From Candidatus Omnitrophota bacterium (lineage in GTDB: Bacteria; Omnitrophota; Gorgyraeia; Zapsychrales; Fredricksoniimonadaceae), in assembly GCA_013286575.1 (NCBI GenBank), contig JABDFL010000004.1, positions 1 to 55,473 on the forward strand: 55,473 bases of DNA, given 5' to 3'. This document shows, piece by piece, positions 3,519 to 36,358 of this stretch (positions are counted from its first letter, which is position 1; every line of letters begins with the position of its first letter). The notes below the pieces were generated by a model. That model saw only the letters and a program-made list of their open reading frames with translations. It ran no database searches and was not told where the DNA came from. The position numbers and the translations under genes were made by a program.

Positions 3519-3672
3519 AATTGACCCCGTAAGATTTATTGGATTTGTTGAACAGCGATAATATGGCACAATATTGATTATTTGTCAATATTTATTTGCA
3601 CATATTGCTAATTAGTTTGATTAAATGTCAATATTGGAGAGAAAAAAATTTGATCGTAGAATTTCAATAAGG

Positions 3673-12691: not shown

Positions 12692-14103
12692 GCTCTTCGA
12701 TTCAATTAGTCGTGATCGGCGCCGGTCCCGGTGGTTATGCTGCGGCTTTTTTAGCGGCAGACTTAGGCATGGAAGTGGCCATCGTCGAAAAAGAAATCAA
12801 CCCCGGCGGCGTTTGCCTCTACCGCGGCTGCATCCCTTCCAAAGCGCTTTTGCATACAGCCAAAATCATCAGTGAAGCCAAACATGCCAAAGCCTTTGGC
12901 ATTGAATATAACGACCCTAAAATAGATATTAATAAACTGCGGGACTGGAAAAAATCGGTGGTCAGCAAATTGACCGGCGGTTTGGGCCAATTGGCCCGTG
13001 CGCGTAAAATTAAATATTTTCAGGGAGAAGCCGCTTTCGTCAACTCCAATACCCTGAAAATCAAAAAGACTGACGGTTCCACCGAAGAATTATCATTCCA
13101 GAAAGCTATTTTAGCGACGGGTTCACGCCCGTCAGTCATCCCTAATTTACCTAAATCTCCTGATATCTGGGATTCCACAGGAGCCCTGGAATTAGAGAAT
13201 ATTCCTGGAAATTTATTGGTGGTCGGCGGCGGTTATATCGGCATGGAATTAGGCACCGTCTATCATGAATTGGGCTCCAAGGTTTCGGTCGTTGAAATGA
13301 CCCCGGGACTTTTGCCTGGCGCTGACCGTGATTTGGCAGACATTCTTTACAAGCGTGTTAAAGGCTTGTTTGCCAAGATCATGCTCGAGACCAAGGTCGT
13401 TAAAATGGAGGCTTCCGCGAAAGGCGGCATCACCGTGACCTTTGCTGACAAAGAAGGAAAAGAATTTAAAGAAGATTACAATAAAGTCCTGGTTTCTATA
13501 GGCCGTCGTCCCAATTCAGAAAATCTTGGCCTGGAAAACACCAAGGTCAAGGTCACTCCCCGCGGCTTTGTTGAAGTCAACGATCAACGCCAAACCGCAG
13601 ACCCAAGTATTTATGCCATCGGTGATATCGCCGGTGACCCTATGCTGGCCCATAAAGCCTCACACGAAGGCCGAGTGGCCGTAGAGACAATTGCCGGGCA
13701 CAAGGTGGCTTGGGAGCCGCAGGCCATCCCAGCGGTGGTTTTTACCGACCCTGAAATCGCCTGGTGCGGAATGACTGAAATCGATGCTGCCAAGGCCGGA
13801 CGTGAAGTAACGGTTGTTAAATTCCCGTGGGCCGCCTCAGGCCGTGCCTTGACCCTTGACCGCACTGATGGATTGACCAAACTTCTCATTGATCCTAAAA
13901 CCGAACGTGTTCTGGGTGTGGGAATTGTCGGGGTTGGGGCCGGAGAAATGATCGCTGAAGGGGTGGTGGCCATTGAAATGGGCGCCGTTGCCAAGGATTT
14001 AGCACTTTCCATCCATCCTCACCCGACGCTGTCAGAAACCATCATGGAAGCTGCCGAAAGCTTCTTCGGCCAGAGCACGCATATCTACAAGCCTAAGAAG
14101 TAG
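12688..14103 (+). CDS. lpdA: dihydrolipoyl dehydrogenase E3
   Basis: 471 aa with the FAD motif VVIGAGPGGYAAAF, the redox disulfide GGVCLYRGCIPSK and a C-terminal HPHPTLSE. Its start forms an ATGA overlap with the aceF stop. Confidence 0.95.
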   Translation: MSSSIQLVVIGAGPGGYAAAFLAADLGMEVAIVEKEINPGGVCLYRGCIPSKALLHTAKIISEAKHAKAFGIEYNDPKIDINKLRDWKKSVVSKLTGGLGQLARARKIKYFQGEAAFVNSNTLKIKKTDGSTEELSFQKAILATGSRPSVIPNLPKSPDIWDSTGALELENIPGNLLVVGGGYIGMELGTVYHELGSKVSVVEMTPGLLPGADRDLADILYKRVKGLFAKIMLETKVVKMEASAKGGITVTFADKEGKEFKEDYNKVLVSIGRRPNSENLGLENTKVKVTPRGFVEVNDQRQTADPSIYAIGDIAGDPMLAHKASHEGRVAVETIAGHKVAWEPQAIPAVVFTDPEIAWCGMTEIDAAKAGREVTVVKFPWAASGRALTLDRTDGLTKLLIDPKTERVLGVGIVGVGAGEMIAEGVVAIEMGAVAKDLALSIHPHPTLSETIMEAAESFFGQSTHIYKPKK

Positions 14104-17100
14104 CCCCCAAGAATTTCCTCAAATTTAACATCGGCTCAATACTGATAATCACCGGGACAAAACCGGGGGCGTTTTGCAATTCCTGGAGCTGTGCCGGATC
14201 AATATGAAATTTAATCCCCTGGCCGTTGTTTTGGACAGTTAAAGCTTTGTCAGAAGTCAAATCAATCCCACCTTTATCCTCTACCTTCATCGCTACATCA
14301 GCCGGCTGCAGGTCTTTCTTTGAAAAAATATACATCTGTTTTAGACGCCCGGCTCTTAAATAATTCAAAGGAATGGAAGTATTTATTGTAGTAAACCCTC
14401 TTTCTTCAAATATTCTTGCAGACAGATGGACTTCTGAAAATCCTGTGATTAGCAACTTACCACCATCATTTAGAAAATCATGCACTTCTGATACTAAAGC
14501 CAATGCCTGCTCTCTGGAAGCCACTTCAAAATTAAAGCCCCCACCAATTGAGGTAATAATATCCATTTTAGGAACGTTATCTTCGCTGGAAAAAAGGCTT
14601 TCTCCCTCAAGTAAATTCTTTGGAATAATCTGAATGTACATCGAAAGCCTCTCTTTGAAATCCTTTCGAACAGCATCTAAAACATTTAAATTTTGTTCAT
14701 TGCCTTCTGCCAGCCAATAGTGCATACGGGGCATATCCCTGCCTTGAAAATGTCGCACTAAAGCCTGATGAAATTTCTCTATAAAAGACCCATCACCGGC
14801 AAAAATATCCATCATATTTATGTCTTTTTGTCCTTTTGCTGCCATTTCATCTACCAACGAAACAACTGCACTTATCGCCATTGGATGAATGAACTCATTA
14901 TAAGCTTGCTTGGGTCGGGTATTTCGGACGGACCAGTCATACCAATAAGACAAAGGCATTGAGCGGGGCGCAGATAAGAAAGTTTCATCTTCAAATTCAT
15001 TGCCTTTCAGGAGTTTAAGGATATCGTAAAGCCAAACTTCTTCTTCAAGATTAAGAGGAACATACCTCTGTAAATCGGTGTCATACCATACATCCCGTCT
15101 ATCCCCCCTAAATGCAGTACCTTCCATGGGATTGGATATTATCTCCTTTGATATCCTTACATCCTGTAATACCCGTATATCTGCCTGATCAAGCCCTACA
15201 GGCAGGGCATTAATTCTGATTCTCATATCAGGATATTGTGAACGCACCTTTAATAGCGGAGAAGGAAGTTCTCTATTGAGAGGATTCCGGGCAATACTTT
15301 CATTGATTTGCCTGACTTTTCCAGCAATGGCCTTAACACGGGCCCTATCATCCATTTCCGGATGAGGGTTGAACACTCCATTTACAAATGCCCCTTTAAT
15401 AATTGGACTCATCGCCGCATCCCGGATTGGCTTCTTTTGTACTGCTCCTGAATCAATGACGACCATTTCTCCATTAGGCAACATGCCTAAATTGCCACTG
15501 TCATAATTTCTATAACTAACATCAATTAATACATAGCCCTGTGCTTCTAGTTTAGCATTGAGACGCCGAACGCCCGCATTTGTAATACCAGCCGTAATCA
15601 CTTTAGGTAGTCGTTCAACTGTCCAACCGCCAATTTTCTTAGAAACGGTAGGCTGAAGGACTCCATCAATATCAGGCCTGGGAGTTTGGTCTTTATTAAA
15701 ACGAATGACATCACCTTCCGGTGTTTCAAGCACTAATGCTTGAGTGCCTGCGCCTAATCCTTTAGTTCCCAAAGGAATTTCAGCTAAAAGATCATTCGCA
15801 TACCGGCTCTTTAAAATATCTTGTGCCCGGGGCTCAGGAACTTCCATCGCCTCACCATTTCTTACTACGTTACTTTTTCTTTTTAAACCTGATAATAGAT
15901 TTCTTCCATACTCAATTCTTTGGCCTTGTAAATCTAATTGGATGGCCTGATCGGGAGCGTCTGCTTCCAATCTTCTTATTAAAGATGTGATCCTCTGTCG
16001 TTTTGACAAATCGTCTTTTAAATCTTCGTCTTGTGCTAATGCCTTCTTCAGGAATTGAATTAATGTCACACGCATATTCTTTTGTGTTTTCACAAGCGCC
16101 TGCCGTTTAGAACCAGGATCTTTAAAATGCGCAAACTCCCTTTCAAACTCATTAAGGTCCAAATGTTCACAAAAATTGATTAAACGGGCCAGCTTTTCAA
16201 TATCAAATCGGCCATTGAAATGCCTTAAGAATGTGCCTACGGGGTACTGGTAAAAATAATCCGTGCTGAAAGTTTTATCAAAAGATGTCAGCAAATCAAA
16301 TGCGACAAGATGTGCCTTGCCATTCACGGAGAATATTTCGTAATTATGATGCTTACGAAAATCAATGTCCGTATGTTGCATTAAATAGGAAAAAGCCACT
16401 AACTCTTCAAGTCCATAATGTTCTGAGGAAATGGTTTCGGCATATTCTTCAATAGGCTGTATGACCAGAAAAAGTAAACCCGAAGGACTTTTGAAACCAA
16501 ATTTTTTCTCCAGCGGTACAGCTTCAACGCCTTTTATTAACCTTGTATCCGGAACATAGACACCAATTTTGCGGGCAATACTATAAGATAAATTTTCATT
16601 AGCTGTATTATCTGTATTGTCATACGCTTTAACGTAATACTCTTCTCCTTCCGGGCCATTAAGCCTATACACTCTCCTGTCTTTGCTAATAAGTCTGGAT
16701 TTCTCAAAGAAATCTGAACTTAATTTATCAATATCAAATTTAGGCGCGGCATTCGTCGCCGCATCATTTCTCGCCCGTATTTTCCTTAAGATCACTCCTT
16801 CATGTAACATTGTCAGAAGATCGTATCTATGATCTTCAAAACTCACAGGGCCCTTATTTAAAAAAACCCTTCCTGCGATTCCAGTATTGATCATTACCTT
16901 TATTGTTTCAATGTCTCTGTCATCGGCATAGATAATGATCGACTTACCAGGATGCGATTTCCAATAGATAGCCAATGCTTTTTCCAATCTCTGCAAAGCC
17001 TTTGGCTGCAAATGCAGCATCGGCACTGAAAATGCTTTTGCACCTGCGTATTTTGCAAACACTCTCCTATTAACAGCATTGTTGGACTGACTCATCAGGT

Positions 17101-19273
17101 GCGTGCCGATTCCAAGATTATCCAAATCATCGGAAGGGAAAATCACATTCATCGCCGCATCACCTGCCCTCATCACCGCCACGCCGCCTGAGCTCATGGC
17201 ACGGTCCATACCGGCCATAGCAATTTGATTGTACCGCGCTAAATATTGATATTGGTAAACGTCAATCAGTAAATACTTCGCCCCTTGCCGCCTTGCTTGT
17301 TCTAAACAAATTTTTCCAAGAAAAATTTCATTCCCTATTAATTCATAATAAGACCTCATGTATTCATTGACTCGAACGGGCCAGGCTTGGGCTGCAAGAA
17401 AATCATCAAGCTCATCTTCACGATAATATTCTTTCGTATCAGATATTCTCTCCATGACTCTAAAAAAATAATATAACATCGTTTTCTCATCAGGATTTTC
17501 TTGAAAAAACCTTATTACCTCTTCTCTTAACCCTTCCATCCTGACCCTCAAATCCCTGATACTATCTTGAAAGTCAACGGATCTCTTAGAGCTCGCACTG
17601 ACTATATTTAAATTGACTTTGTCACGAACAAGGGCAAATATAGCAGGACCGTAAAGGGCCCTCATCAGCTTATCAGCAGCTTCCCGGGCATCAATACGGT
17701 TTGTGTAGGCTGCCGAAGCACCACTAAAGATCATTTCTTCTCTTTCTTTAAAGAGACGAATATCGTCCTTGATCTCTTTTTCCTCCATATTTACTGCGAT
17801 AATCAGTTTCCCGGTACTATTTTCTGCCCTCATGTTCTTTAAGAATTCCGGGTAGGAGGAATCGAATTTTAATGTATTAAGCCTATACATAAGTTCTTTG
17901 ACCTCCTCTACATCCGGTTTTTTATCGCTAAAAAACACCTTCTTGATTTTTTCGACCAGATAAGCGGGAACACCGGGCCAACGATATTCAGCAGTACCTT
18001 CGGCTGCTTTTACAGGAGTCGGCAGGAATGCCGTAGTGGCTATTGTAGCCGCTGCTAATCCTAAGGCTTCCCGCCTTGTCAACACAGTGTCCAATTGCAT
18101 TGTTAAACCGAGTAGGCCTGTTTTATTGTTCGGAGGAGTCGCGGTTGCTGTGATGGCCGGATCCAATAAGGTCACGCCGCCGGAGAAATATTGCCTCGGG
18201 ACGAGCTGCTGTGTTATGGGGTCTTGTTCTTCTTTAATGTAGTTATAAGCGCCTTTTTTGAAGGCTTGGAGGTAGCGTTGGTAAATGACTTGGGGGGTAA
18301 AACTTTTATACCCTATTCCTACCACCTTACTTTTGTTTTCGTATACTTGTGCCAGGATGCTTGCTTTGATTTTCTTTTTGTACCAGGTGGCGAGGATGAG
18401 AGAATTATAGACCTGCCGTAGTTGGGCGAAATTTTTGTCCTGGTTGACTTCTTTGGTGAGTTCGGGGATGACTACTTCACGGACGACCTGGGAGCCGAGG
18501 GAACTGATACTGTTAAAAGATTGCTTCGCTGCGCTCGCAATGACACTGCTTTGCAATGACGAAGGAATTGGGCCTTTTGACACATTCTTGCTAAACGCTA
18601 AATAATCCTGCTCAAGCATGACTTTTAATTTGCTTTCGATGATATAGGCGGTGCCGGCTTGGGCATTTTCGTAGACTACGGCTTTTTCGGGGACTATCCA
18701 GACTTTGTTAAAAGTGTTGACCGGAATATTTGTTGTGCCGAATTTCTTTTGGGCTTCCTCATAAATCCGTTTCCAGAATTTCCTGCCTATTTCTCCTTCA
18801 GGATAAATTAAGCTGGCGGTGATTTGTTTGAGCATATAATCTTCAGCCAACAGGTCACGGCCCATTTCGGTTAGGCCGAAGCTTTGCGGAATGATGCGAT
18901 TTTTTTCGTAGGGGCTTAAGTTTACCCAGAGATCTTTTTCAGGGATGGTGAGGCTGGCGAGGAAGTATTTTATTAGTTTGGTGGATTCTTCTTTGATAAA
19001 AGATTGCTTCGTCGCTTCGGCTCCTCGCAATGACACCGAGGACAAATCACCTTTGTCTAAAATAAAATCGAAACGGAAAGGATTGTCGGGATGGATTTTG
19101 AGGCCTTTTAGTATGGGAGGATTGAATTCCGGGCTTAGGGGGACCATTATCCCTGGTTTTGGCAATAGGAATTCACCTGCCTGGGCCGTTGGTATAGGGC
19201 CAAACGTATTAGCTAAAAAAGCAATAATTAGCCCAAGAGCTATATTAGTTCTTAAATTTAGATACTTTCTCAT
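14093..19273 (-). CDS. giant exoprotein A (1726 aa): signal peptide, conserved N-module, unknown regions, two kinase-like domains, SAM methyltransferase, conserved C-module
   Basis: An uninterrupted 5.2-kb ORF starting at ATG 19271-19273. The signal peptide is IALGLIIAFLANTFGPIPTAQA/GEF. The N- and C-modules are shared with 24032..29623 and 32693..36358. The MTase motif I is MDIFAGDGSF. Confidence 0.9.
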   Translation of the reverse strand: MRKYLNLRTNIALGLIIAFLANTFGPIPTAQAGEFLLPKPGIMVPLSPEFNPPILKGLKIHPDNPFRFDFILDKGDLSSVSLRGAEATKQSFIKEESTKLIKYFLASLTIPEKDLWVNLSPYEKNRIIPQSFGLTEMGRDLLAEDYMLKQITASLIYPEGEIGRKFWKRIYEEAQKKFGTTNIPVNTFNKVWIVPEKAVVYENAQAGTAYIIESKLKVMLEQDYLAFSKNVSKGPIPSSLQSSVIASAAKQSFNSISSLGSQVVREVVIPELTKEVNQDKNFAQLRQVYNSLILATWYKKKIKASILAQVYENKSKVVGIGYKSFTPQVIYQRYLQAFKKGAYNYIKEEQDPITQQLVPRQYFSGGVTLLDPAITATATPPNNKTGLLGLTMQLDTVLTRREALGLAAATIATTAFLPTPVKAAEGTAEYRWPGVPAYLVEKIKKVFFSDKKPDVEEVKELMYRLNTLKFDSSYPEFLKNMRAENSTGKLIIAVNMEEKEIKDDIRLFKEREEMIFSGASAAYTNRIDAREAADKLMRALYGPAIFALVRDKVNLNIVSASSKRSVDFQDSIRDLRVRMEGLREEVIRFFQENPDEKTMLYYFFRVMERISDTKEYYREDELDDFLAAQAWPVRVNEYMRSYYELIGNEIFLGKICLEQARRQGAKYLLIDVYQYQYLARYNQIAMAGMDRAMSSGGVAVMRAGDAAMNVIFPSDDLDNLGIGTHLMSQSNNAVNRRVFAKYAGAKAFSVPMLHLQPKALQRLEKALAIYWKSHPGKSIIIYADDRDIETIKVMINTGIAGRVFLNKGPVSFEDHRYDLLTMLHEGVILRKIRARNDAATNAAPKFDIDKLSSDFFEKSRLISKDRRVYRLNGPEGEEYYVKAYDNTDNTANENLSYSIARKIGVYVPDTRLIKGVEAVPLEKKFGFKSPSGLLFLVIQPIEEYAETISSEHYGLEELVAFSYLMQHTDIDFRKHHNYEIFSVNGKAHLVAFDLLTSFDKTFSTDYFYQYPVGTFLRHFNGRFDIEKLARLINFCEHLDLNEFEREFAHFKDPGSKRQALVKTQKNMRVTLIQFLKKALAQDEDLKDDLSKRQRITSLIRRLEADAPDQAIQLDLQGQRIEYGRNLLSGLKRKSNVVRNGEAMEVPEPRAQDILKSRYANDLLAEIPLGTKGLGAGTQALVLETPEGDVIRFNKDQTPRPDIDGVLQPTVSKKIGGWTVERLPKVITAGITNAGVRRLNAKLEAQGYVLIDVSYRNYDSGNLGMLPNGEMVVIDSGAVQKKPIRDAAMSPIIKGAFVNGVFNPHPEMDDRARVKAIAGKVRQINESIARNPLNRELPSPLLKVRSQYPDMRIRINALPVGLDQADIRVLQDVRISKEIISNPMEGTAFRGDRRDVWYDTDLQRYVPLNLEEEVWLYDILKLLKGNEFEDETFLSAPRSMPLSYWYDWSVRNTRPKQAYNEFIHPMAISAVVSLVDEMAAKGQKDINMMDIFAGDGSFIEKFHQALVRHFQGRDMPRMHYWLAEGNEQNLNVLDAVRKDFKERLSMYIQIIPKNLLEGESLFSSEDNVPKMDIITSIGGGFNFEVASREQALALVSEVHDFLNDGGKLLITGFSEVHLSARIFEERGFTTINTSIPLNYLRAGRLKQMYIFSKKDLQPADVAMKVEDKGGIDLTSDKALTVQNNGQGIKFHIDPAQLQELQNAPGFVPVIISIEPMLNLRKFLGATS
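18516..18565. repeat. family-1 mini-repeat copy inside giant gene A (codons ~238-253)
   Basis: aaaagattgcttcgctgcgctcgcaatgacactgctttgcaatgacgaagg has the same AGATTGC...CTCGCAATGACAC termini as the other copies. Confidence 0.65.
18999..19036. repeat. family-1 mini-repeat copy inside giant gene A (codons ~79-92)
   Basis: aaagattgcttcgtcgcttcggctcctcgcaatgacac is nearly identical to the aceF right arm. Confidence 0.7.
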
Positions 19274-23861: not shown

Positions 23862-24031
23862 ATGCCCCCTGGTTAATTGGTCCTTTAAAATCTCTCCTGA
23901 GTCGATTAATTATATGGTAACACTATGTTGTCTGTCAAGTTATGTGGAGCTATCTTTGAAAATCATCTTTTGAATACAAAAACGCCCTTTAAGTTACTGT
24001 TTAGGTAGAAATTCGCTATAAAAACTTAATC

Positions 24032-27000
24032 TTATTTAAGTGTAGTACTTTGGGTCAAACCAAGAAATTGGGAAAGACTCTTAAGTGGCTGGATATTAAT
24101 AATCACCGGCACAAAACCTGGAGCATTTTGAAGTTGCTGAAGCATGGCTGGGTCTAAATGAAATCTAATTTCACTTCCACTGTTTTGTGTCTGTAAATTC
24201 ATATTGGCAGGGGTTAGGTCGATACCCCCTTTAGCAGTCATGGCTCCATCTGTTAGCTCTTTCCAAGCATCGTGACTTGTTACCTCAATCCTCGGAAATT
24301 TAACCATTGCATCTATTCGATTGGCCAGTTGATCAATAGGTTCGGTATCTACCTTATTATCTAAAAAAGGCTTAATAACGTAAGAAGAAGCACCACCAAA
24401 AATATCGCTTTTATCATCGACAAGCAGTCGATATTTAAACAAACCAATCGGTTTATACTCATTGTACTTCTCACTATACTTTTTGAATAAACTTTGATAA
24501 TACTCCTTTCTAACGCTATTTGATACTCCTGGATTCCAGGCTGATAGTCCATTATCTCCTGTAATAATCAATTCAAATAAACCATACATTTCACTGTTGG
24601 ATAATAAATATTTTCTGACAGCTTTTTTGGGTGAACGGGTCCACAAAACAAGCCGATATCCCATTGTCTTCAATTTATTCAATTCATCAATGATGCCGGG
24701 TCTTATAATTGATACGGAACCAAGAAACGTCCTTCTCTTATCGAGAATTGTATGATCCATATCAAAAACGACGGTAGGCCTCTCTCTAGACATAGTCCGT
24801 TCATTCTTAATAAACTGTTCTTCATAAACACTCCCATCGATGAAGCCATTTTGATCAATGACATTTTTCTTGCCTTGGGTTGAACTATCCGTGCCGGCCT
24901 CTTCATTAATTGAATCTACTTTAAGAAGTTCTAAATCACGGCCATGTATCAAGACTACCGTGGAAACACTCGGGTACCTTTCAAAATAATAACCATCAAA
25001 ATGATGCATCATAAGATATACAGGCAAAAGATCTTCATGAGCTCCGCCAAAATTCAACTGAACCCACTTTTCATATTCTTTTTCACCAACGCCGTTAAGA
25101 TGAAAGAGTCTTTGCTGTCTTTGAATCCCCAAGGTTAAGACGTAGCTACCTGAATTCCTCATTGTTTTTATGGTAGCGTAATTAAAGGCTTTACGGTAAG
25201 AAGTTGTCAAAAACACACCCATGTGAGTATAAATATTGTTTTTGGCGCCAAATATTGAAGGCATTAATTCGCCCCTATCATTTATACGTTCAAGCTCTTC
25301 TCCGTCAACGCCTCTATAAAGTACTTCTGTGGCCTCATGAAATTCTTTTAAATCAAATCCAAAGAGTTTTTTTATAAAACGTGATGCCTTCCCTATAAGA
25401 AAAAAATACCATCTAACAGTGGTCTCTGAAAAGTCAGTTAAATAAAGATCAATAAAAGTATTGGCTCTTTGTATTTTTCTTGAAAACCAATTTATAAAAT
25501 AACTGGTGATTTTTTCTTGAATGTTTCCGTCACGATTCTCAGCAACACCCCAATCCTCTATGAATATCTTGGAAAAATACTCCGCCAACTGAGAATTCTC
25601 TAGCCTGATTCCCAATTCCTGATTACCATAATACGCCCTGGGTGTCAAATCTGAACTCCCTGTAATTACTGTATTATCAGCTATAAGCAACTTACGATGA
25701 TCAAAAAGACCTTTGGGGTTGCTCCATCTAACAGGCACACTGGAACTCTGTAATTTATCGTAGGCTGGCAAACTTCTAACGTAGGGAATATATAATGGAA
25801 ACAACTGAAATTTTTTCTCTACCCCATTTAGCAAAACCCTAATATCTATTTTGGGATCATTCCTGAGTTTCATCTTAAGAACTTGGACGATAAGATCATC
25901 GTTCAAATGCCATTGTGAAATATATATCCTCTTTTTTGCTTTAAGAATTTCCTGGATATAAGCAAAACGTGTATTATCTTCAATAGAACGTTCTCGCAAT
26001 ATTTGTCCCCAAGGATTCTTGGTTGCTCTAAAAGCATATCTTTGACCATGTGCCCAATACCAATTCTCCCAGAATATGTCCTCAAATTCTTTCAGGCCAT
26101 GAATAGAATGAACGATTAATCCTGCTGTTCTTCCTCTAAAGAAGCTTAAATTATCACAACCTATATAAACATATTGTCCATCGATTATTATCAATTTTTT
26201 ATGATCATCTGGAGAAGGTGCTGCCATCACAAATTGACGGTTTCTTTCTGGCCGATAAAAAATAATCTGCAGATTATTGATTTCTTCTTTTTGTATCGAT
26301 TGAATTAATTCTGATTGTTTCTTAGTGAGTCTTTTGACATTCTTACCTATAATGACTTTAACCTCTATTCCTTCTATAGCCTTTTGTTTTAATAAATCCC
26401 ATACGGAATTATCATGGAATGAATACATATCTATGAGTATGGACCTACGCGCGTCGGTCACCAATTGTCTAAGTATGCGCCCCCCATCAAAAGTCTCACC
26501 TATGGGCAATATGTGCACACCTTGATGCTCAATCCACCTAAGCCGATATTCTTCTTGTGCAGGGCTTTTATCATTAGACACCATTGCTTCATCAGGTTTT
26601 AAGTTCTGAACTGAGATGGCTGAAGTTTCATCAAAAAAATAAAATCGTGAACGGGAATTCATATTAGCTCTTGCTTCTTCCCTACCAAGTATTCTGCCGT
26701 CCGTTGAATCATAAATATTCCCAGAAAAATGATCTAACAAAGCATTGGCCTCAAAAAACATCAATCCGTCTGAGATGTCTTGTCCCTTTTCGTGTAAAAT
26801 CTGGTTTAATGGTTTTTGGGATATTAATTCTTTGATGAGTTCTTTATTCTCTTCAGTTTTAGCCTGCCCTTTAATTACGGCCCCCAACATACTTTCCGCC
26901 ATTATTAATATCAACCGTTGGACCCTTCTTCCCAAATCTGATTGGGTAATAAGGCCTTCTCTTAACAATAAAGCCCATTCTTCAACAACATTATTCGCAA

Positions 27001-29623
27001 ATATACTATCCAAAATAGTTTTGTTTATATCGTTTAAAACCGCTGTCTCAAAATGTGCTTTCTTTGTGGAAGAATAGATAAATACTGCATGACGAACCCA
27101 TTTATTTACCAACGGTGGTCTCATTAGCCTTTGAACAATTCCTATCTCTCTAAAAAGTGTTTCACTTGTTTCATTAATCCTCACTTCCAGTTCCGTATCT
27201 TTTTTAGGCACAGATTCCGATAACGTCACAATGATCACTTCCTTGGCTCCAGCATCCAATAATTTTCTCCGGATTTCCGTGGAAGTAAAACCCGTCCCCC
27301 AATGATCGTCCACAAGCAGTATCGTTTTCCCTCTTATTTGATCTAAATCTTTAATTTCATAAGCATCAATCACATTTAAAGCCTTGTTTAACAGACCTTT
27401 AACTAACTTCTGTTCTCTTCTCCGATCTATTTTTACAACAGATGAATTACCAACTGAAATATGGGATTTTTCTGATAAAACCATTAACAAAGGATCTAAT
27501 TGATTTTGCTGACCGTTTAATCGCGGGACACCAATAATTAAGTCTGGTTTAAGATTTTGAACACTCAAAGCTCGAATCACTTTTTCTGAAAATTTATCAG
27601 CCAATTGAAGCATTGCTTCAACATTCTTTTTAGTTTCAAAATATTGTATTGAAAAATTATCATAAATAAAGTTTGGATGGCTATGTGGAAACAAAACATT
27701 GAAGGTAATTACTGGGTGTTTGTAAGAAGTCAGTGACAAATTACTTTCAGCGGTGTTCAAATTCGCTATGCCATATTTCAACAATTCCGTAACCCAATAA
27801 TATCCAACGTCAGCTGAAACACTTTTCCCGGTAAACATAAAAGAAGGGCTTTCTTCATAACTGCTTTTGGCAGCCGACGAAAGATAATTAAAAACACCTG
27901 TTTTGACCAAGTCATCCTGTGTCTCAAAATATATTCTCTGGATCAACGTTCGGATAACTTCTAATACTTCTTCATGTTTTTGCGTTTCTACTTCATATTG
28001 TTTTAAAAGACTTGCTAAGGTATCAAGCTTTGATTCCACCGGCTCCGTTCCTGGCATCACACTATTTAAAATGGCTTGATACCTTTGCGCTGTCTCACTT
28101 AAACCTCTTATACGTAACCTAAAAACTTCAAAAGCAACTTTTAAAGCCAAATATTCTCTATTAAAAAGACCCTGCCCACGATTTTGAGCGATCTTGTAAG
28201 CTTCTTTGGAAATATAATCAATACGTCCCTTACTAACAATCCAATAAAATGAATCACTTGCCGGATTTAAAACAAACTCAGCTGGGACAACCCCTCTCCC
28301 TCTATCTGTAGCGATATAATCTGTGAAAAAAATGGGCTGATAATAAATTTTATCTCCCGATTTTTTAATTCTTATTAAACCAAACTCTTTACTAATAACT
28401 AACTGTCCATTTTGTAATTGACTATATAAAACAATACCATCTCTATACTCCAATGATGCACTCATCGCTGGGTCAATTCTGACATTAACTATTTCACTAT
28501 CATTACCGGAAGGCATGTTCCATTGATGCAAAATTATCATGGCCGAATCAATTTTCAAGATTGTCATATTAAGCAATACCCCACCCGAAAAATATTTCCT
28601 TGGAATAGTCTCTTGAGTCACAGGGTCTTGTTCTTCTTTAATATAGTTATAAACACCTTTTTTAAACGCCTGTAAATACCGTTGATAAATTTTTTGCGTT
28701 TCTTGCGGGTCATCAATATTCACTCCAGCCACCTTCTTCTTATCGGCATACACCTGCTCTAGAATACAGTCCTTAATTTTATTTTTGTACCAAGTGGCTA
28801 AGATGAGACTGTTATAAATTTGGCGTAATTGAGAGAAATTTTTGTTCTCGTTAACTTCTTTTGTTAATTCGGGGATGACGATTTCGCGGACGATTTGGGA
28901 GCCTAAAGCACTCGTGTTCTGGATTCCCGCTTTCGCAGGAATGACATTGTGAGAGAGTGCTAGGTAATCTTGCTCAAGCATTACCTTCAATTTACTTTCA
29001 ACAACATACGCCGTACCAGCCTTAGCATTCTCATATACCACAGCTTTTTCTGGCACAATCCAAACTTTATTAAATGTGTTGACGGGGATATTCGTTGTAC
29101 CAAATCTTTTCGTAACTTCTTCGTAAATACGTTTCCAAAATTTCTTACCAATCTCCCCTTCAGGATAGATTAGGCTGGCCGTTACCTGCTTGAGCATATA
29201 ATCTTCGGCCAGTAAATCCCTGCCCATCTCAGTCTGGCCAAATGATTCTGGGACTATGCGGTTTTTTTCGTAAGGACTTAGATTGACCCAGAGGTCTTTT
29301 TCAGGAATGGTTAAAGAGGCAAGGAAATACTTAATCAACCTACTAGATTCATCTTTGAGAGCGTCATTAGATAATTGGCTGTCACCTTTATCTAAGATAA
29401 AATCAAAACGAAATGGATTGTCAGGATGGACTTTGATTCCTTTAAGGACTGGCGGATTAAATACAGGACTCAAATACACCATTACCCCAGGCGCAGGCAG
29501 ACGAAATTCATCTGCCTTGACTTGAGGTATAGGACCAATTGTATTAGCAAAAAATACCAATAAAATGATAAAAGATTGCCCCGGCCTAAAAAACAGGCCT
29601 CGCAATGACATATAACTCCGCAT
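24032..29623 (-). CDS. giant exoprotein B (1863 aa): signal peptide, conserved N-module, ComF-like PRTase, double-HKD phospholipase D, ART-like, HAD/FCP1-like phosphatase, conserved C-module
   Basis: An uninterrupted 5.6-kb ORF with ATG at 29621-29623 and a second ATG at 29609-29611. Motifs are listed in the findings. The N- and C-modules are shared with the other two giant genes. Confidence 0.9.
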   Translation of the reverse strand: MRSYMSLRGLFFRPGQSFIILLVFFANTIGPIPQVKADEFRLPAPGVMVYLSPVFNPPVLKGIKVHPDNPFRFDFILDKGDSQLSNDALKDESSRLIKYFLASLTIPEKDLWVNLSPYEKNRIVPESFGQTEMGRDLLAEDYMLKQVTASLIYPEGEIGKKFWKRIYEEVTKRFGTTNIPVNTFNKVWIVPEKAVVYENAKAGTAYVVESKLKVMLEQDYLALSHNVIPAKAGIQNTSALGSQIVREIVIPELTKEVNENKNFSQLRQIYNSLILATWYKNKIKDCILEQVYADKKKVAGVNIDDPQETQKIYQRYLQAFKKGVYNYIKEEQDPVTQETIPRKYFSGGVLLNMTILKIDSAMIILHQWNMPSGNDSEIVNVRIDPAMSASLEYRDGIVLYSQLQNGQLVISKEFGLIRIKKSGDKIYYQPIFFTDYIATDRGRGVVPAEFVLNPASDSFYWIVSKGRIDYISKEAYKIAQNRGQGLFNREYLALKVAFEVFRLRIRGLSETAQRYQAILNSVMPGTEPVESKLDTLASLLKQYEVETQKHEEVLEVIRTLIQRIYFETQDDLVKTGVFNYLSSAAKSSYEESPSFMFTGKSVSADVGYYWVTELLKYGIANLNTAESNLSLTSYKHPVITFNVLFPHSHPNFIYDNFSIQYFETKKNVEAMLQLADKFSEKVIRALSVQNLKPDLIIGVPRLNGQQNQLDPLLMVLSEKSHISVGNSSVVKIDRRREQKLVKGLLNKALNVIDAYEIKDLDQIRGKTILLVDDHWGTGFTSTEIRRKLLDAGAKEVIIVTLSESVPKKDTELEVRINETSETLFREIGIVQRLMRPPLVNKWVRHAVFIYSSTKKAHFETAVLNDINKTILDSIFANNVVEEWALLLREGLITQSDLGRRVQRLILIMAESMLGAVIKGQAKTEENKELIKELISQKPLNQILHEKGQDISDGLMFFEANALLDHFSGNIYDSTDGRILGREEARANMNSRSRFYFFDETSAISVQNLKPDEAMVSNDKSPAQEEYRLRWIEHQGVHILPIGETFDGGRILRQLVTDARRSILIDMYSFHDNSVWDLLKQKAIEGIEVKVIIGKNVKRLTKKQSELIQSIQKEEINNLQIIFYRPERNRQFVMAAPSPDDHKKLIIIDGQYVYIGCDNLSFFRGRTAGLIVHSIHGLKEFEDIFWENWYWAHGQRYAFRATKNPWGQILRERSIEDNTRFAYIQEILKAKKRIYISQWHLNDDLIVQVLKMKLRNDPKIDIRVLLNGVEKKFQLFPLYIPYVRSLPAYDKLQSSSVPVRWSNPKGLFDHRKLLIADNTVITGSSDLTPRAYYGNQELGIRLENSQLAEYFSKIFIEDWGVAENRDGNIQEKITSYFINWFSRKIQRANTFIDLYLTDFSETTVRWYFFLIGKASRFIKKLFGFDLKEFHEATEVLYRGVDGEELERINDRGELMPSIFGAKNNIYTHMGVFLTTSYRKAFNYATIKTMRNSGSYVLTLGIQRQQRLFHLNGVGEKEYEKWVQLNFGGAHEDLLPVYLMMHHFDGYYFERYPSVSTVVLIHGRDLELLKVDSINEEAGTDSSTQGKKNVIDQNGFIDGSVYEEQFIKNERTMSRERPTVVFDMDHTILDKRRTFLGSVSIIRPGIIDELNKLKTMGYRLVLWTRSPKKAVRKYLLSNSEMYGLFELIITGDNGLSAWNPGVSNSVRKEYYQSLFKKYSEKYNEYKPIGLFKYRLLVDDKSDIFGGASSYVIKPFLDNKVDTEPIDQLANRIDAMVKFPRIEVTSHDAWKELTDGAMTAKGGIDLTPANMNLQTQNSGSEIRFHLDPAMLQQLQNAPGFVPVIINIQPLKSLSQFLGLTQSTTLK
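28921..28947. repeat. family-2 hairpin mini-repeat inside giant gene B (codons 227-235)
   Basis: ggattcccgctttcgcaggaatgacat has an 8-bp stem ATTCCCGC/GCAGGAAT (one mismatch) with a 4-nt loop. Confidence 0.7.
29571..29610. repeat. family-1-like variant at the 5' end of giant gene B
   Basis: aaagattgcc-ccggcctaaaaaacaggcc-tcgcaatgaca has conserved termini. Its interior is replaced by a GGCCT/AGGCC hairpin. Confidence 0.45.
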
Positions 29624-29731
29624 AAGTGAAGTATAAACTATCTATATACTTTCTGCCACTTTTAGACCTTTTGAACCTTAAAAACTGACTAGAAGGAAGG
29701 CTGGTTTGTTTGGTTGTAGTTTTATAATTAT

Positions 29732-30442
29732 GTGATGTACAATATAAATATGGTAACATACGTCATGCTTCAAGCCTTTTTACAGGGAGCTTTTGAACTT
29801 ATTTTCCCTGACAATTGCCTGCTCTGCCGGCAATTCCTTAATAGCCGCCACCAGCGACAGCTATGCCCTCATTGCCTGGGCTCCCTGGCCTTTAATCCAA
29901 ACCCCTTTAGCCGGCAATCAACATCCGGCTCATTTGCTTTTGACCAGGCATGGTCGGTTTGTCTTTATAATGAACCAGCCCAAAAGCTGCTCCATGCTTT
30001 TAAATACAATTCCAAAACATCCCTCAGTAAAACCTTTGTCCCTTTAATGATTGATTTCATCGACCGCCATCATGTTCCCGTGCAGCTGTTTGACTTGATC
30101 GCTCCCATCCCCCTGCATCCGGTGAGACTGCGGGAACGGGGGTACAATCAATCTGCTCTTTTGAGTCTTGCCTTAAGCCGGCACTACGGAATTTCACATT
30201 CAGAGGACCTGTTGATACGCCAGAAAATGACATCTAGCCAGACGGAATTAGGGGCAAAACAACGCTGGACAAATATGGAAGGGGCTTTTAGAATAAAAAA
30301 TCCGTCGGAAGTTGAAGGTAAAAGTGTCGTGCTTGTTGATGACCTTTTTACCACAGGCGCTACCGTGCACAGCGCCGCGGAAACCTTAAAATCAGCCGGT
30401 GCTGCCAGGGTTGGAGCGTTGACTTTCAGTATAACTATTTAA
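29732..30442 (+). CDS. comF: ComF family protein (zinc-ribbon plus phosphoribosyltransferase domain)
   Basis: Cys pairs CLLC...CPHC, PIPLHPVRLRERGYNQS, and the PRT loop VVLVDDLFTTGATV. The true start may be an internal Met (MLQAF...). Confidence 0.75.
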   Translation: MMYNINMVTYVMLQAFLQGAFELIFPDNCLLCRQFLNSRHQRQLCPHCLGSLAFNPNPFSRQSTSGSFAFDQAWSVCLYNEPAQKLLHAFKYNSKTSLSKTFVPLMIDFIDRHHVPVQLFDLIAPIPLHPVRLRERGYNQSALLSLALSRHYGISHSEDLLIRQKMTSSQTELGAKQRWTNMEGAFRIKNPSEVEGKSVVLVDDLFTTGATVHSAAETLKSAGAARVGALTFSITI

Positions 30443-32692: not shown

Positions 32693-35600
32693 TTATTGGA
32701 TAAAATTCAGAAGATCGGCAATGGGGGTAATGCCGACAATAACTCCACGCAGGCCCCGTGAGTTTAAAACCATGTCTTCGAGGGCCTTATCGCTGACAAC
32801 ATCCGTCATGACGCGACCTTGACGGTCCATAGGAATGTTGCTGAGCTTGATACCGCCGGGAATATTCATGGCTGTATCAGAAACCCCCACTACTAAAGAT
32901 TGACCGGTCTTTTCAACTTTCTCGAGCTCTTGGACAAAATCAAACAGCTTGTCCATTGCTCTCTTAGTTAGCTTTATTTTGCCTCGTGTCTCAGGCTCCT
33001 GTTTAAGCGCATTAAGTTCTTCTCTCAAACTTTCTTTCAAGGGAGCTAATACGGGACTTTCACCATAAAGATAATTAAGATGAGATAATATGTCTGCACT
33101 CCCCGGACGATTGTGAAATTCCAAGGGGGTGATGTCACCGAATGCCTCAAGGAAAGGACTTAACCCATTGCCATTCTTATATACTTCTTCACCCTTATTA
33201 TCCTTCCAAACAAATGGCCCTCCAATTTCATTTAGCAAATACAATGCTTCATCACGGTCAATTGATAGTGGCGGGGTTTCCCCAGCTTTAATCTCTATTG
33301 GTGGGGGTTCATGTTCCCAATTTTCTTCTTTATCCCACTGTTCTTCAAAATGGGCACGTCTTTTTTCAAACTCTGCAATGGGATTGGCACTGCCTCCATT
33401 TAAAACGTCGAAAGCAATACCATATTCATTAATCATACGATAAATGGATACCTTTTGATGAGCGGCCCGAAAAGCCTCTTCCATCACTTGATATCGTTGT
33501 CCATTTCCAGGATTTCGATACATGTCAACGAATTCTTGCATATATGCGGCAAACTGCCGCCGACCTTCTTCATAAAATCGGGTCAGTGCCCATTGTTCCT
33601 TGTGTTGAAACGCCCATATAATTCTGCGAAATTCAGCACTATGTTCACCATTGCGTTTCGCATGTTCAAAATCAAAAGGATTTACTAACCATCCACTAAC
33701 TCCGGGCTTGATCCATTCCAATGGGCCTCCAGTCGCCGTAGCAATAGATGGGTGGCCATTTAAAGCCGCTCGTTCATCACTTGTACCAGATGCCTCCCGG
33801 GTCAGCCATGGCATGACCAACCAGCAATCAGTTGCTGATGTTGCAAATTTCATGAATTCTGTTCCTGTTGTTCTTTCAATGATTACAAATTTTCCTTTAA
33901 TATCAGGTTCCAGGGACAGCTGTGTTAATGCACTCACCCACTCAGGGGCTACACCATCAAGAGCTTCGCCAGCCAATAAAAGGTTTGCTCCGAGCCCCTT
34001 CCTTGGCCCTAATGGCGAGTCGTACACTTTATTTGGGTCTCCCACAATCCACCTGACCATAGGAATGAACAGGGCCTGAGATTTATATTCTACCATCCTT
34101 CGAACAGCGCCAAATAATGGCCGCTTGTGAATGTCAGCAAAACCCTCCAATCCCATACCTCTCAAATATTCATTTAGCTTGTATTTCTGGTTTGATCCTA
34201 TATCAAACAGATCCTTCCCGGTAATATTTGCTATCCCTTTTCTTGAAATGAGTCTGTTAAGATCATCAGAGCGCCACAGGGACGGCAAAGATCCATTTTG
34301 GATACCGGTTGTTTTGTCCGCAAAACCGGGCAAAACTGCTTCACGGGTAACATCAGCATGCTCCAACGAAACACCATTGATCATATGCGCATGATGGCCC
34401 ATAGCTCCAGCTGCATTCACTTGCCCGTTATATATAATATCGTCTCGCACAAGATCAGCACCTACCAAGTCTTTTAGCTTACCAACGTCCTTCCAAACAG
34501 GTAATGCCGCTGCTTCAGGTGTATGAGTTGTCATTAAAAACTTGGTTTCAGCAAAAATGCTCCGTTCACCTTTTTGTCTTTTTGCATCAATATCGTTCAA
34601 TACGGCCGTCATGACAAAAATTAATTGTGGCTCGCTTAATCGTAATATGCGAGGAGCAATGCCTAAAGCATAACAAAGTTCAACATAAGCCTTACCCATA
34701 AAACCATATTGTATGACTTGTTCGTCGCCTCCCGGGTACAACCTTTTAAACAGGTTGCGTTGTTTGATACCAAATACAGGAGTCCCATTAGCATCGACCC
34801 AGTAGATATAAGCACGTTCTTTTTTCCCTTTGAAATCCACATCAATGGAAAGCGCATGGTTATTTCCTTTTCCATCTTGAACAATAACAGGATGGACCCC
34901 TTCTTGGTGGTCCCAATCAACTTCGACACCATTCTTGTCATAGCTATAAAGCGGCATAGCGCCTGCGGCATTCCAATTTGGCAATAACTCGCTATAGGCT
35001 TGGTAGGTTTCTCCCGCCAGAAAACCAAGCCCTCCTTTGCCTAACGCTAATTGAGCCGTCCCCTTAATAGCAGATAAGAAAGCTTCAAGAGTTACATCAG
35101 TGACAACCCCGCTCCCTTCTGGATTTTGTAAATTGGCAATAACCCCCTCAGGGCCGTTTATAATCCGCAATCGTTTCCCGTGATAAAGCGCCTTGGGTGG
35201 CTCACTTGAAGTAACGCTTCGAATATCAACCCGCATATCATATATTTGTTCATCTCCTAAGACATCTAAACTCGTAACCATTGCGGGTTCACGTAGAATT
35301 TGTTGATCTACAAAACCGCCGGAGAAATATTTCCTGGGAACAGGCTGCTGGCCTGACCGGGTCATCTCTTCTTTAATATAGCTGAAGACACCCTTCTTAT
35401 AGGCAGACAGGTATTGATGGTAGATACGGTCTTTATTCTTTGGATCGCTGAGATCAATACCCGCGACTTTATTACGCCCGGAATAAACTTTATTGAGGAC
35501 CGATTTTTTAAAAACGTCCTGATACCATTGGGCCAGGATGAGGGCGTACAATATTTGCCTTAACGGCGCAAAATTCTTGCCTTCATTGACTTCATTCTCT

Positions 35601-36358
35601 ATGGCAGGGAGAACAACTTCACGTAAGACCTGCTTGGATAGATTCCTGACAGTATTATTTTTCTGCGCATTGATGTTCTCGCCCAATTTGTTTAGGGCCA
35701 AATAATCCTCTTCAAGCATGACCTTAAGATGCGCATTGACAATGTAAACCGTATTGCCCTTTTCAAATACCGACGCTTTCTCAGGAAGGATCCATACCTT
35801 ATTAAATACATTGACCGGGACCTGGGTAACGCCGAATTTCCGGTAAGCTTGCGTATACACTTTGTTCCAAAATGTTTTACCTAAATTGCTCTCCGGATAA
35901 ATAAGGGAAGCCGTGATTTGTTTGAGCATGTAGTCTTCTGCCAAAAGGTCACGGCCAAGTTCTGTTTTGATCAAGGTATCCGGGATAATGTGGTTTTTCT
36001 CGACCGGGGAAAGATTGACCCAAAGATCCTTTTCAGGTGTCGCCAAAGAAGCCAGGAAATAATTAACCATGCGCTGGGACACTTTCTTAAAATTGTCAGC
36101 GCTTAATCTTTCATCGCCGGGATCTACGATAAAATCAAACATGAAGGGATTTTCAGGATGGACTTTCAGGCCCTTGATCAAAACAGGCTTAAAAGCCGGA
36201 CTTAAACTTACTCTGGTTCCCGGTTTCGGTAAGAAAAATGACAAGCCGGATATATCAACAGATTGGGCATGGGCAGGCGGCAGGAATATTGATGTTCCCA
36301 AAAAACTGATTGAGACCCAAAGGGCCAAAAAGCGTCGGAAAATGATGATCGGTCTCAC
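32693..36358 (-). CDS. giant exoprotein C (1221 aa): signal peptide, conserved N-module, alpha-glucan phosphorylase-like domain, helical region, divergent C-module
   Basis: An uninterrupted 3.7-kb ORF with the signal peptide FLALWVSISFLGTSIFLPPAHA/QS. GT35-like strings include GGLGFLAGE, THTPEAA, INGVSLEH, GIQNGS and REASGTSDERAALNG. Confidence 0.9.
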   Translation of the reverse strand: MRPIIIFRRFLALWVSISFLGTSIFLPPAHAQSVDISGLSFFLPKPGTRVSLSPAFKPVLIKGLKVHPENPFMFDFIVDPGDERLSADNFKKVSQRMVNYFLASLATPEKDLWVNLSPVEKNHIIPDTLIKTELGRDLLAEDYMLKQITASLIYPESNLGKTFWNKVYTQAYRKFGVTQVPVNVFNKVWILPEKASVFEKGNTVYIVNAHLKVMLEEDYLALNKLGENINAQKNNTVRNLSKQVLREVVLPAIENEVNEGKNFAPLRQILYALILAQWYQDVFKKSVLNKVYSGRNKVAGIDLSDPKNKDRIYHQYLSAYKKGVFSYIKEEMTRSGQQPVPRKYFSGGFVDQQILREPAMVTSLDVLGDEQIYDMRVDIRSVTSSEPPKALYHGKRLRIINGPEGVIANLQNPEGSGVVTDVTLEAFLSAIKGTAQLALGKGGLGFLAGETYQAYSELLPNWNAAGAMPLYSYDKNGVEVDWDHQEGVHPVIVQDGKGNNHALSIDVDFKGKKERAYIYWVDANGTPVFGIKQRNLFKRLYPGGDEQVIQYGFMGKAYVELCYALGIAPRILRLSEPQLIFVMTAVLNDIDAKRQKGERSIFAETKFLMTTHTPEAAALPVWKDVGKLKDLVGADLVRDDIIYNGQVNAAGAMGHHAHMINGVSLEHADVTREAVLPGFADKTTGIQNGSLPSLWRSDDLNRLISRKGIANITGKDLFDIGSNQKYKLNEYLRGMGLEGFADIHKRPLFGAVRRMVEYKSQALFIPMVRWIVGDPNKVYDSPLGPRKGLGANLLLAGEALDGVAPEWVSALTQLSLEPDIKGKFVIIERTTGTEFMKFATSATDCWLVMPWLTREASGTSDERAALNGHPSIATATGGPLEWIKPGVSGWLVNPFDFEHAKRNGEHSAEFRRIIWAFQHKEQWALTRFYEEGRRQFAAYMQEFVDMYRNPGNGQRYQVMEEAFRAAHQKVSIYRMINEYGIAFDVLNGGSANPIAEFEKRRAHFEEQWDKEENWEHEPPPIEIKAGETPPLSIDRDEALYLLNEIGGPFVWKDNKGEEVYKNGNGLSPFLEAFGDITPLEFHNRPGSADILSHLNYLYGESPVLAPLKESLREELNALKQEPETRGKIKLTKRAMDKLFDFVQELEKVEKTGQSLVVGVSDTAMNIPGGIKLSNIPMDRQGRVMTDVVSDKALEDMVLNSRGLRGVIVGITPIADLLNFIQ

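Follow-up and report, generated by a model that had tools for sequence, protein, structure and literature searches.

A glucan phosphorylase-like domain with arginine at the cofactor-lysine position in a predicted exported Omnitrophota protein

Positions 1 to 55,473 of contig JABDFL010000004.1 (forward strand; assembly GCA_013286575.1, Candidatus Omnitrophota bacterium), hereafter the window, encode giant protein C (giant C), whose central domain resembles the alpha-glucan phosphorylases of glycosyltransferase (GT) family GT35 and carries arginine, Arg863, at the position of the lysine that binds pyridoxal 5'-phosphate (PLP). This Arg-type domain belongs to a PLP-lysine-free lineage of the phosphorylase/synthase GT-B super-clade that is undescribed in the literature searched and inconsistently annotated. 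Tentatively, its conserved residues, its predicted structure and analogy with a PLP-free enzyme suggest an alpha-1,4-glucan glucosyltransferase of phosphorylase type that is catalytically competent without covalent PLP, and in which a non-covalent phosphate would occupy the cofactor-phosphate site and be positioned partly by Arg863. Coordinates are collected in Table 1.

A first-pass annotation of this DNA, read by eye, had found the conserved GT35 blocks in family order within giant C, and every block it listed is present in the translation of 32693-36358 (minus strand), including INGVS (aa 660-664), IQNGS (aa 686-690) and VRRMVEYK (aa 752-759). Giant C matches the NCBIfam model TIGR02094 (E=8.3e-17) and, by phmmer, Protein Data Bank (PDB) entry 9l6i, an 'alpha-glucan family phosphorylase' (E=4.7e-6). 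A profile of 20 family sequences reaches E=6.5e-21 against 9l6i, aligning profile positions 417-903 with chain residues 77-624 and covering the whole catalytic domain. An AlphaFold2 (AF2) model of residues 385-1015, with a predicted local distance difference test (pLDDT) score of 90.1 and a predicted template modelling (pTM) score of 0.90, retrieves the Segatella copri glycogen phosphorylase (GP) entries 20yr/9l6i as top Foldseek matches in the PDB (E=1e-27 to 2e-27); other phosphorylases also match, and GT5 starch synthases follow slightly behind (E~6e-24). The predicted GT-B two-Rossmann fold is closest to the phosphorylases, in keeping with the GT35-like character first assigned to the region.

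Pairwise and profile alignments both place Arg863 opposite the lysine of the EASGTSGEK segment of 9l6i, which is Lys609 by residue count along the phmmer alignment. With Arg at the PLP position in both alignments and no lysine there, the hand alignment behind the first-pass annotation was not shifted, and its central observation, the replacement of the PLP lysine by Arg, holds. The surrounding block, REASGTSDER, spans residues 854-863, nt 33761-33796 translate to EASGTSDERAAL, and no lysine lies within 10 residues of Arg863. In the cryo-electron microscopy structure of S. copri GP, Lys609 carries PLP (PMC12912991). A single-base sequencing error was considered as the source of Arg863 and rejected: the codon CGA is two substitutions from the lysine codons AAA and AAG, so one base error cannot explain it, and Arg is kept in homologues.

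All 20 full-length homologues (31-81% identity) share Arg at the PLP-Lys position. When 367 fetched proteins were aligned to the family hidden Markov model (HMM), 264 aligned stretches covered the motif, with Arg in 121, Lys in 94, Thr in 29 and other residues in a few. Rabbit GP Tyr648, the Tyr of the FLE-[DN]-Y-D block, stacks on the pyridoxal ring. Lys co-occurs with Tyr in this block in 91 of 94 stretches and with a DGW loop in 81, and Arg with a non-Tyr residue in 109 of 121 (Tyr is retained in 12) and with an xGG/xAG loop in 102. Three elements of the pyridoxal pocket have thus changed jointly across the clade, Arg863 standing in for Lys, Thr831 for the stacking Tyr and TGGP for DGWW, and TNG[VI] of the Lys-type becomes [QLV]NGS in the Arg-type. 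Directly after GGLG, all 29 Thr-type sequences have Phe, and 87 of 90 Lys-type sequences have Val, Ile or Met (1 of 90 has Phe); the window protein (Phe446) and every one of its close Arg-type relatives have Phe, Tyr or His there.

Invariant or nearly so in both the Arg- and Lys-types are GGLG, His612, Asn688, Trp695, Arg753, Arg754, Tyr758 and Lys759, together with Glu855-Ala-Ser-Gly-Thr-Ser; Arg753, Arg754, Tyr758 and Lys759 are invariant in the family alignments. From known GP motifs, we take His612 to be the counterpart of rabbit GP His377. The residues that hold the glucosyl unit in phosphorylases (GGLG, His612, Asn688 and Glu855-Ala-Ser-Gly) are kept, as are those that hold the two phosphate positions (Arg753, Arg754, Tyr758, Lys759 and the helix start at Thr859-Ser860). 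The other phosphate and PLP contacts to which the first-pass annotation had pointed therefore divide by alignment, the phosphate-binding residues being kept and the PLP-stacking Tyr and DGWW replaced.

The close family is small, as an exhaustive HMMER search of 1.84 billion representatives returned no more than 300 relatives at E<=1e-3, with 41 reaching E<=1e-30. A word-based search shows a sharp drop from the family (E<=1e-61) to the Lys-type enzymes (E~1e-13). Source-named Arg-type members come from Paceibacterota, Falkowbacteria (candidate phyla radiation, CPR), Sedimentisphaerales (Planctomycetota), Elusimicrobiota and Omnitrophota, and one 90% cluster is named 'glycogen/starch synthase' by NCBI and 'glucan/starch phosphorylase' by JGI. 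As judged from these alignments, the Arg substitution is the mark of a deep lineage, not of a single loss. Beyond what was first noticed in giant C, it defines a whole lineage, and that lineage has cytoplasmic members. Literature searches on Arg-type or Lys-less GT35 enzymes, on GT5/GT35 intermediates and on the N-terminal domain of giant C (N-domain, below) brought up no account of either the Arg-type clade or the N-domain; the Thr-type precedent described below came only from a search by motif. The papers on Omnitrophota giant proteins that were searched mention GT5-like domains, and term searches within them turned up neither the Arg-type domain nor the protein cassette that carries it. Among close family members, P0123 (1,081 aa) is the only one with Ala at the PLP-Lys position (EASGTSDGAAALNG), its other motifs being intact; distant members of 510-530 aa show scattered Gly, Asp, Met, Val, Cys and Leu replacements there. 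In P0030 and P0031, a segment around RRxxxYK...W[IV]xGD..K.Y.HP...PGL occurs in three tandem copies within the Arg-type domain, with RR..YK retained in the third copy only.

S. copri GP, a GT-B enzyme of the TIGR02094-type 'clade 2' phosphorylases, is the best match in both sequence and fold. It shares with the window domain the block order GGLGxLAG, THTP, NGVS.EH, xNG...W, RRxxxYK and EASGTS at 17-25% identity, and its Lys609, stacking Tyr, DGWW and TNGVH correspond to Arg, Thr, TGGP and QNGS. The window protein lacks the beta-sheet domain that the S. copri enzyme has at its C terminus and, unlike it, is a signal-peptide cassette protein.

The GP of Methanococcus maripaludis has Thr in place of the PLP Lys and is free of PLP as judged by four methods, namely absorbance, fluorescence, the cyanohydrin assay and mass spectrometry (bioRxiv 10.1101/2024.09.29.615707). 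It nevertheless phosphorolyses glycogen, with no non-covalent PLP. As modelled in the preprint, the site of the PLP 5'-phosphate holds a second, 'catalytic' phosphate, and the pyridoxal site is filled by bulky residues, Phe26 among them (10.1101/2024.09.29.615707). Enzymes of this Thr/Ser type (for example, the 553-aa P0230) and the window domain both lack the PLP lysine and keep the phosphate-binding residues, and both the Thr-type and the close family of the window protein have Phe directly after GGLG. The differences are that the replacement is Thr/Ser rather than Arg, that DGW[IV] is kept, and that Tyr is kept in the sole alignment row covering its column, 28 other rows not reaching it. 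P0230 is moreover a clear TIGR02094 member, at 412 bits versus 61 bits for the window domain, and the Arg-type forms a separate, much more divergent block in a neighbor-joining (NJ) tree. P0135, P0156, P0162, P0168, P0230 and ~25 others, all of ~553 aa, carry Thr/Ser at the PLP-Lys position (EASGTSGMT) with GGLGFLAGSHM and TN[AS]QN; they are annotated 'alpha-glucan family phosphorylase' or 'starch phosphorylase' and match the PLP-free M. maripaludis type. One of them is named Verrucomicrobiaceae, so the type is not confined to Methanococcales.

From the fold, the residue pattern and this precedent, we infer how the site may be occupied and what Arg863 may do. The pyridoxal pocket would be filled or remodelled by protein side chains, and a non-covalent phosphate would sit in the PLP 5'-phosphate site, positioned by Arg753, the helix N-terminus and the invariant Arg863. 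This free phosphate would act as a proton shuttle towards the substrate phosphate, by analogy with the two-phosphate mechanism put forward for the M. maripaludis enzyme. The product would be glucose-1-phosphate, which fits the phosphoglucomutase and UDP-glucose pyrophosphorylase domains fused to relatives. Conservation of the Arg and of all sugar- and phosphate-contacting residues across a deep clade is the pattern expected of an active enzyme, and the PLP-free yet active M. maripaludis GP makes loss of the Lys compatible with full activity. At the phosphate/donor subsite the motifs resemble those of phosphorylases (HT, RRxxxYK) and not those of synthases (HN, RxxxQK).

Fusions and gene neighbours tie the domain to alpha-glucans and glucose-1-phosphate and do not tell breakdown from synthesis. 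P0011 has a UDP-glucose pyrophosphorylase (UDPGP) domain fused directly upstream of the Arg-type domain, and other fusions join it to phosphoglucomutase (PGM) domains I and II (P0238), the glycoside hydrolase (GH) domain GH13 (P0244) and PEP-utilizer/AlaDH modules (P0242). P0128, an Arg-type protein with its own signal peptide and no Omnitrophota N-domain, has its gene directly upstream of one for a 975-aa fusion of GH77 and GDE_C, likewise with a signal peptide, an arrangement resembling malP-malQ; a 1,563-aa PPDK_N protein with a signal peptide lies nearby (three genes, L003:1516-13155), and the locus looks like an exported alpha-glucan-processing set, judging from the predicted domains and signal peptides. 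P0267 adjoins a GH57 gene, and a GH57+GT5 fusion lies 5 kb from P0260. The neighbourhoods of P0124, P0126, P0130, P0264 and P0269 hold no information on substrate. On an Elusimicrobia-labelled contig (L001:1-10457), P0124 comes after a giant open reading frame (ORF) of 8,393 aa and a gene for PorV (type IX secretion), and a C11 peptidase gene comes after it.

A crude test detects signal peptides in 44 of 52 family members. Across the types, such a test detects them in at least 51 of 90 proteins with Arg, against 2 of 88 with Lys and none of 29 with Thr; it is conservative, since giant C escapes it. The remaining 39 Arg-type proteins, in which no signal peptide is seen, are mostly stand-alone CPR and Planctomycetota enzymes of 507-690 aa, so the Lys loss predates export. 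Export as the cause of the Lys loss was accordingly rejected, cytoplasmic Arg-type members existing without a signal peptide. The association remains, export being enriched among Arg-type proteins, and the cofactor-free scaffolds appear to be the ones recruited for export.

Several findings weigh against a PLP-free phosphorylase. The agreement with GT35 profiles is partial: TIGR02094 matches at 61.2 bits, below its cut-off of 191.7, and Pfam PF00343 gives no match to giant C at E<=1. Arg-type members are known here from sequences and predicted structures, the role proposed for Arg863 derives from its position, export of giant C is predicted from sequence features, and Phe446 is a candidate counterpart of Phe26 in the M. 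maripaludis enzyme. Other points look towards GT5. The TGGP loop points to nucleotide-sugar synthases, and many distant Arg-type members read EACGTS, with Cys as in GT5 EPCG. P0264-P0306 pass the gathering score of PF08323, the GT5 starch-synthase domain, and P0267 scores 90.6 bits against TIGR02095 (glgA) over residues 30-480 (model positions 17-443 of 477). In an NJ tree with a canonical GT5 protein as its root, the Lys-type and Arg-type fall into two blocks at equal distance from GT5 (mean distances: Arg-GT5, 2.07; Lys-GT5, 2.09; Arg-Lys, 2.17). The tree is a rough one, computed from identity-based distances with a single GT5 outgroup and from an alignment to the Arg-type HMM, and is used only for the separation of Lys- from Arg-types and the similar distance of each from GT5. 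All fusion partners fit synthesis equally well, from glucose-6-phosphate through glucose-1-phosphate and UDP-glucose to glucan.

These GT5-like features favour a UDP- or ADP-glucose-dependent alpha-glucan synthase, GT5-like on a GT35-like scaffold, in which PLP was never used or was lost early, a reading we consider unlikely though far from negligible. The nucleoside monophosphate (NMP) of the donor would fill the PLP space, TGGP would make room for the ribose, and Arg863 would contact the ribose or the alpha-phosphate. TGGP lies at +21 from Glu855, by residue count the same spacing as TGGL in Escherichia coli glycogen synthase GlgA. Also in favour are the NCBI name 'glycogen/starch synthase', the UDPGP domain directly upstream in P0011, the GH57 genes next to or near stand-alone members, and the NJ distances, by which the Arg-type is as far from the Lys-type GT35 as from GT5. 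Distant stand-alone Arg-type proteins (507-693 aa) match both TIGR02094 and TIGR02095; P0253 passes the TIGR02094 cut-off (202.8 versus 191.7 bits), the remaining distant matches to both models falling below cut-off, and the window protein matches neither PF08323 nor TIGR02095 at E<=1. A published proposal has PLP entering a nucleotide-sugar-dependent proto-GT35 in place of an NMP (PMC11046441, a review of alpha-glucan enzymes). Arg-type proteins are what this hypothesis would lead one to expect, and an ancestral and a derived position are both compatible with the data.

What speaks against a synthase is, above all, the donor site. GT5 synthases (GlgA; PF08323, TIGR02095; PDB 6gne, 6gnf) share with the window domain a GT-B fold and the absence of PLP, and the TGG loop, equally spaced from the catalytic Glu, is the only GT5 motif matched. 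Their KxGGL, HN, RxxxQK and EPCGL motifs differ from HT, RRxxxYK and EASGTS, and the lysine of the window GKGGLG is not conserved in the Arg-type, unlike that of GT5 KxGGL. None of the solved structures is Arg-type, and by sequence a phosphorylase comes first among them every time; P0267, the most GT5-like of the members compared, still matches only the S. copri enzyme. No aromatic residue stands at the Tyr position for base stacking, nucleotide sugars would be unavailable if the protein is periplasmic, and the debranching/disproportionating GH77+GDE partner of P0128 is catabolic. A short local match to GT4 EX7E glycosyltransferases (for example, PDB 5ze7; aa 848-900, ~50 residues alignable) puts Arg863 exactly where EX7E has its second Glu; elsewhere the window domain is phosphorylase-like.

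A wider and rather improbable reading sees in the Arg-type a third, unrecognised PLP-free lineage of the GT-B synthase/phosphorylase super-clade, either a proto-GT35 relative or a second route to PLP-free phosphorolysis via the invariant Arg. Needing no cofactor loading, its scaffold would have been the one recruited for export. In Omnitrophota it would be one cargo among hundreds of cytoplasm-type enzymes on a phylum-wide cassette, perhaps one that delivers metabolic enzymes to the cell surface or into prey/host cells.

The first-pass annotation had taken the loss of the Lys to suggest a glycan-binding or otherwise non-metabolic module, a conclusion that these results do not favour. That the domain is a pseudo-enzyme, serving glucan binding or scaffolding on a secreted protein without catalysis, is improbable, even though the cofactor lysine and the Tyr of the PLP-stacking position are gone and the domain belongs to a multi-domain, probably exported protein scoring under family cut-offs. 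The catalytic-centre residues, including RR..YK, the EASGTS helix start and the replacement Arg, are invariant at 31-81% identity, which is unusual for binding modules, and the PGM and UDPGP fusions point to a link through product or substrate. Experiment has shown one Lys-less relative type to be active, and because of this precedent we favour an active, PLP-free enzyme over an inert binding module.

A conventional phosphorylase with non-covalent PLP, salt-bridged by Arg863 without a Schiff base, is highly improbable. The 5'-phosphate cradle is intact (Arg753, Thr859, Ser860, GGLG), Tyr is kept in the minority of Arg-type sequences counted above, and the imine plays no part in phosphorylase catalysis, as cited in the M. 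maripaludis preprint (10.1101/2024.09.29.615707). The close family, however, has Thr for Tyr, TGGP for DGWW and Phe after GGLG, and the PLP-free Thr-type enzyme has bulky residues modelled in its pyridoxal site and showed no non-covalent PLP. Finally, an artefact of shifted alignment or chance likeness was rejected and has next to no probability, since pairwise, profile and structural comparisons agree and the local HMM alignment of 264 sequences resolves clean Lys, Arg and Thr classes at the PLP-Lys column.

To our knowledge, covalent PLP is treated as a universal requirement of alpha-glucan phosphorylases. The M. maripaludis Lys-to-Thr enzyme, described in one preprint, is an archaeal exception to that rule. 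If the PLP-free phosphorylase reading is correct, the Arg-type would be a second PLP-free solution, far more divergent, phylogenetically wider and with its own coordinated pocket remodelling. As the Arg-type lies about midway between GT5 and GT35, the acquisition of PLP by a proto-GT35 becomes testable with a few recombinant proteins. The conflicting NCBI and JGI names mean that glycogen reconstructions for CPR, Planctomycetota and Omnitrophota rest on an unassigned activity. Enzyme export would bear on polysaccharide processing outside the cytoplasm by ultra-small, possibly predatory Omnitrophota.

Table 1. Features of giant protein C and the two related giant proteins of the window.
Feature	Residues	Coordinates	Strand	Remarks
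Whole gene, giant protein C	1-1221	32693..36358	-	1221 aa, GTG start; ORF list and translation
Sec-type signal peptide (predicted)	1-31	36266..36358	-	VRPIIIFRRFLALWVSISFLGTSIFLPPAHA, followed by Q; read from sequence
Omnitrophota-specific N-domain	~40-350	35309..36241	-	49-53% identity to N-termini of the two other window giants
GT-B glucan phosphorylase-like catalytic domain (Arg-type)	~395-990	33389..35176	-	profile, phmmer, AF2, Foldseek
GGLGF, glycine loop and Phe446	442-446	35021..35035	-	GGLG invariant; GGLGFLAGE = aa 442-450
His612-Thr613 in THTPE block (aa 611-615)	612-613	34520..34525	-	invariant in family
QNGS	687-690	34289..34300	-	in place of Lys-type TNG[VI]
RRMVEYK, predicted phosphate-binding Arg/Arg/Tyr/Lys	753-759	34082..34102	-	aligns with RRFATYK of 9l6i
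ERTTG	828-832	33863..33877	-	aligns with FLE-D/N-Y-D block; Tyr to Thr831
EASGTSDER, PLP-motif counterpart ending in Arg863	855-863	33770..33796	-	alignments
Codon CGA (Arg863), PLP-Lys position	863	33770..33772	-	aligned to Lys609 of S. copri GP
TGGP	876-879	33722..33733	-	in place of Lys-type DGWW
C-terminal family motif (54 aa)	1168-1221	32696..32857	-	GGIKLSN...GVIVGITPIADLLNFIQ; common to N-domain proteins
Giant A		14093-19273	-	1726 aa, no Pfam domain; N-domain and C-motif in common with giant C
Giant B		24032-29623	-	1863 aa; cargo phosphoribosyltransferase (PRTase), two PLD-like domains, HAD-like domain

Giant C is composed, in order, of a signal peptide, a ~310-aa N-domain, the Arg-type domain, a variable linker and a 54-aa C-terminal motif (C-motif), and has a full-length homologue at 73% identity (P0002); other homologues are named Candidatus Omnitrophica. 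The signal peptide noted at first pass is Sec-like, with Arg2, Arg8 and Arg9 preceding a 17-residue hydrophobic core and AHA followed by Gln, and it is the sole hydrophobic segment of the protein (the only 19-residue Kyte-Doolittle window above 1.6). Giant C is thus probably exported. The Arg-type domain is the cargo of a signal-peptide-led Omnitrophota cassette protein, and its probable site of action is therefore extracytoplasmic, whether periplasmic, on the cell surface or inside a prey/host cell.

The three window giants share a signal peptide, a ~310-aa N-domain starting LP.PG, a variable cargo and the C-motif, which reads GGIDLN...PVIINxxP...LLG in other N-domain proteins (consensus GGI[DK]L...P[VI]I..ITP..L) and has no Pfam match. 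The N-domain occurs in more than 4,200 cluster representatives, the source-named ones all from Omnitrophica/Omnitrophota, and has no match in Pfam, NCBIfam or the PDB sequences. Its AF2 model (aa 30-375, 35234-36271, minus strand; pLDDT 78) is composed of beta-hairpins and long helices. An assignment to the ClyA/NheA/Mak/Hbl alpha-pore-forming toxins was not adopted, the best Foldseek match (E=0.02, template modelling score 0.15) being non-significant. N-domain cargos are of a cytoplasmic type and include GT5-like synthases, enolase, phosphoglycerate kinase, adenylate kinase, malate synthase/isocitrate lyase, phosphoglucomutase, UDPGP, epimerases, acyl carrier protein, response regulators and methyltransferases; many need ATP, UTP or CoA, which is hard to square with a periplasmic location. 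The N-domain proteins P0022-P0053, annotated 'glycogen/starch synthase', have HHWAGGLGPVMKF instead of GGLGFLxGE, so at least two types of GT-B glucan enzyme ride on the Omnitrophota cassette.

Divergent from giant B, 29732-30442 (plus strand) encodes a small ComF-like PRTase with a double zinc ribbon. GC content is 0.36-0.42 in giants A and B (14001-18000, 24001-30000) versus 0.47-0.50 in flanking housekeeping genes, and intermediate (0.435-0.46) in the gene for giant C. The rest of the window is ordinary chromosome, encoding LptF/LptG, alanine racemase, TsaB/TsaE, ThiL, an IF-2B family protein (MtnA-like), MetRS, CysRS, IspDF, RadA, ClpC, the pyruvate dehydrogenase complex and a secretin. 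The secretin gene (1743-3569, minus strand; PF00263 + Secretin_N_2) adjoins genes for a tetratricopeptide repeat (TPR) protein and a UDP-glucose/GDP-mannose dehydrogenase, and its product, which shares the window with the three signal-peptide giants, is a candidate channel of the outer membrane.

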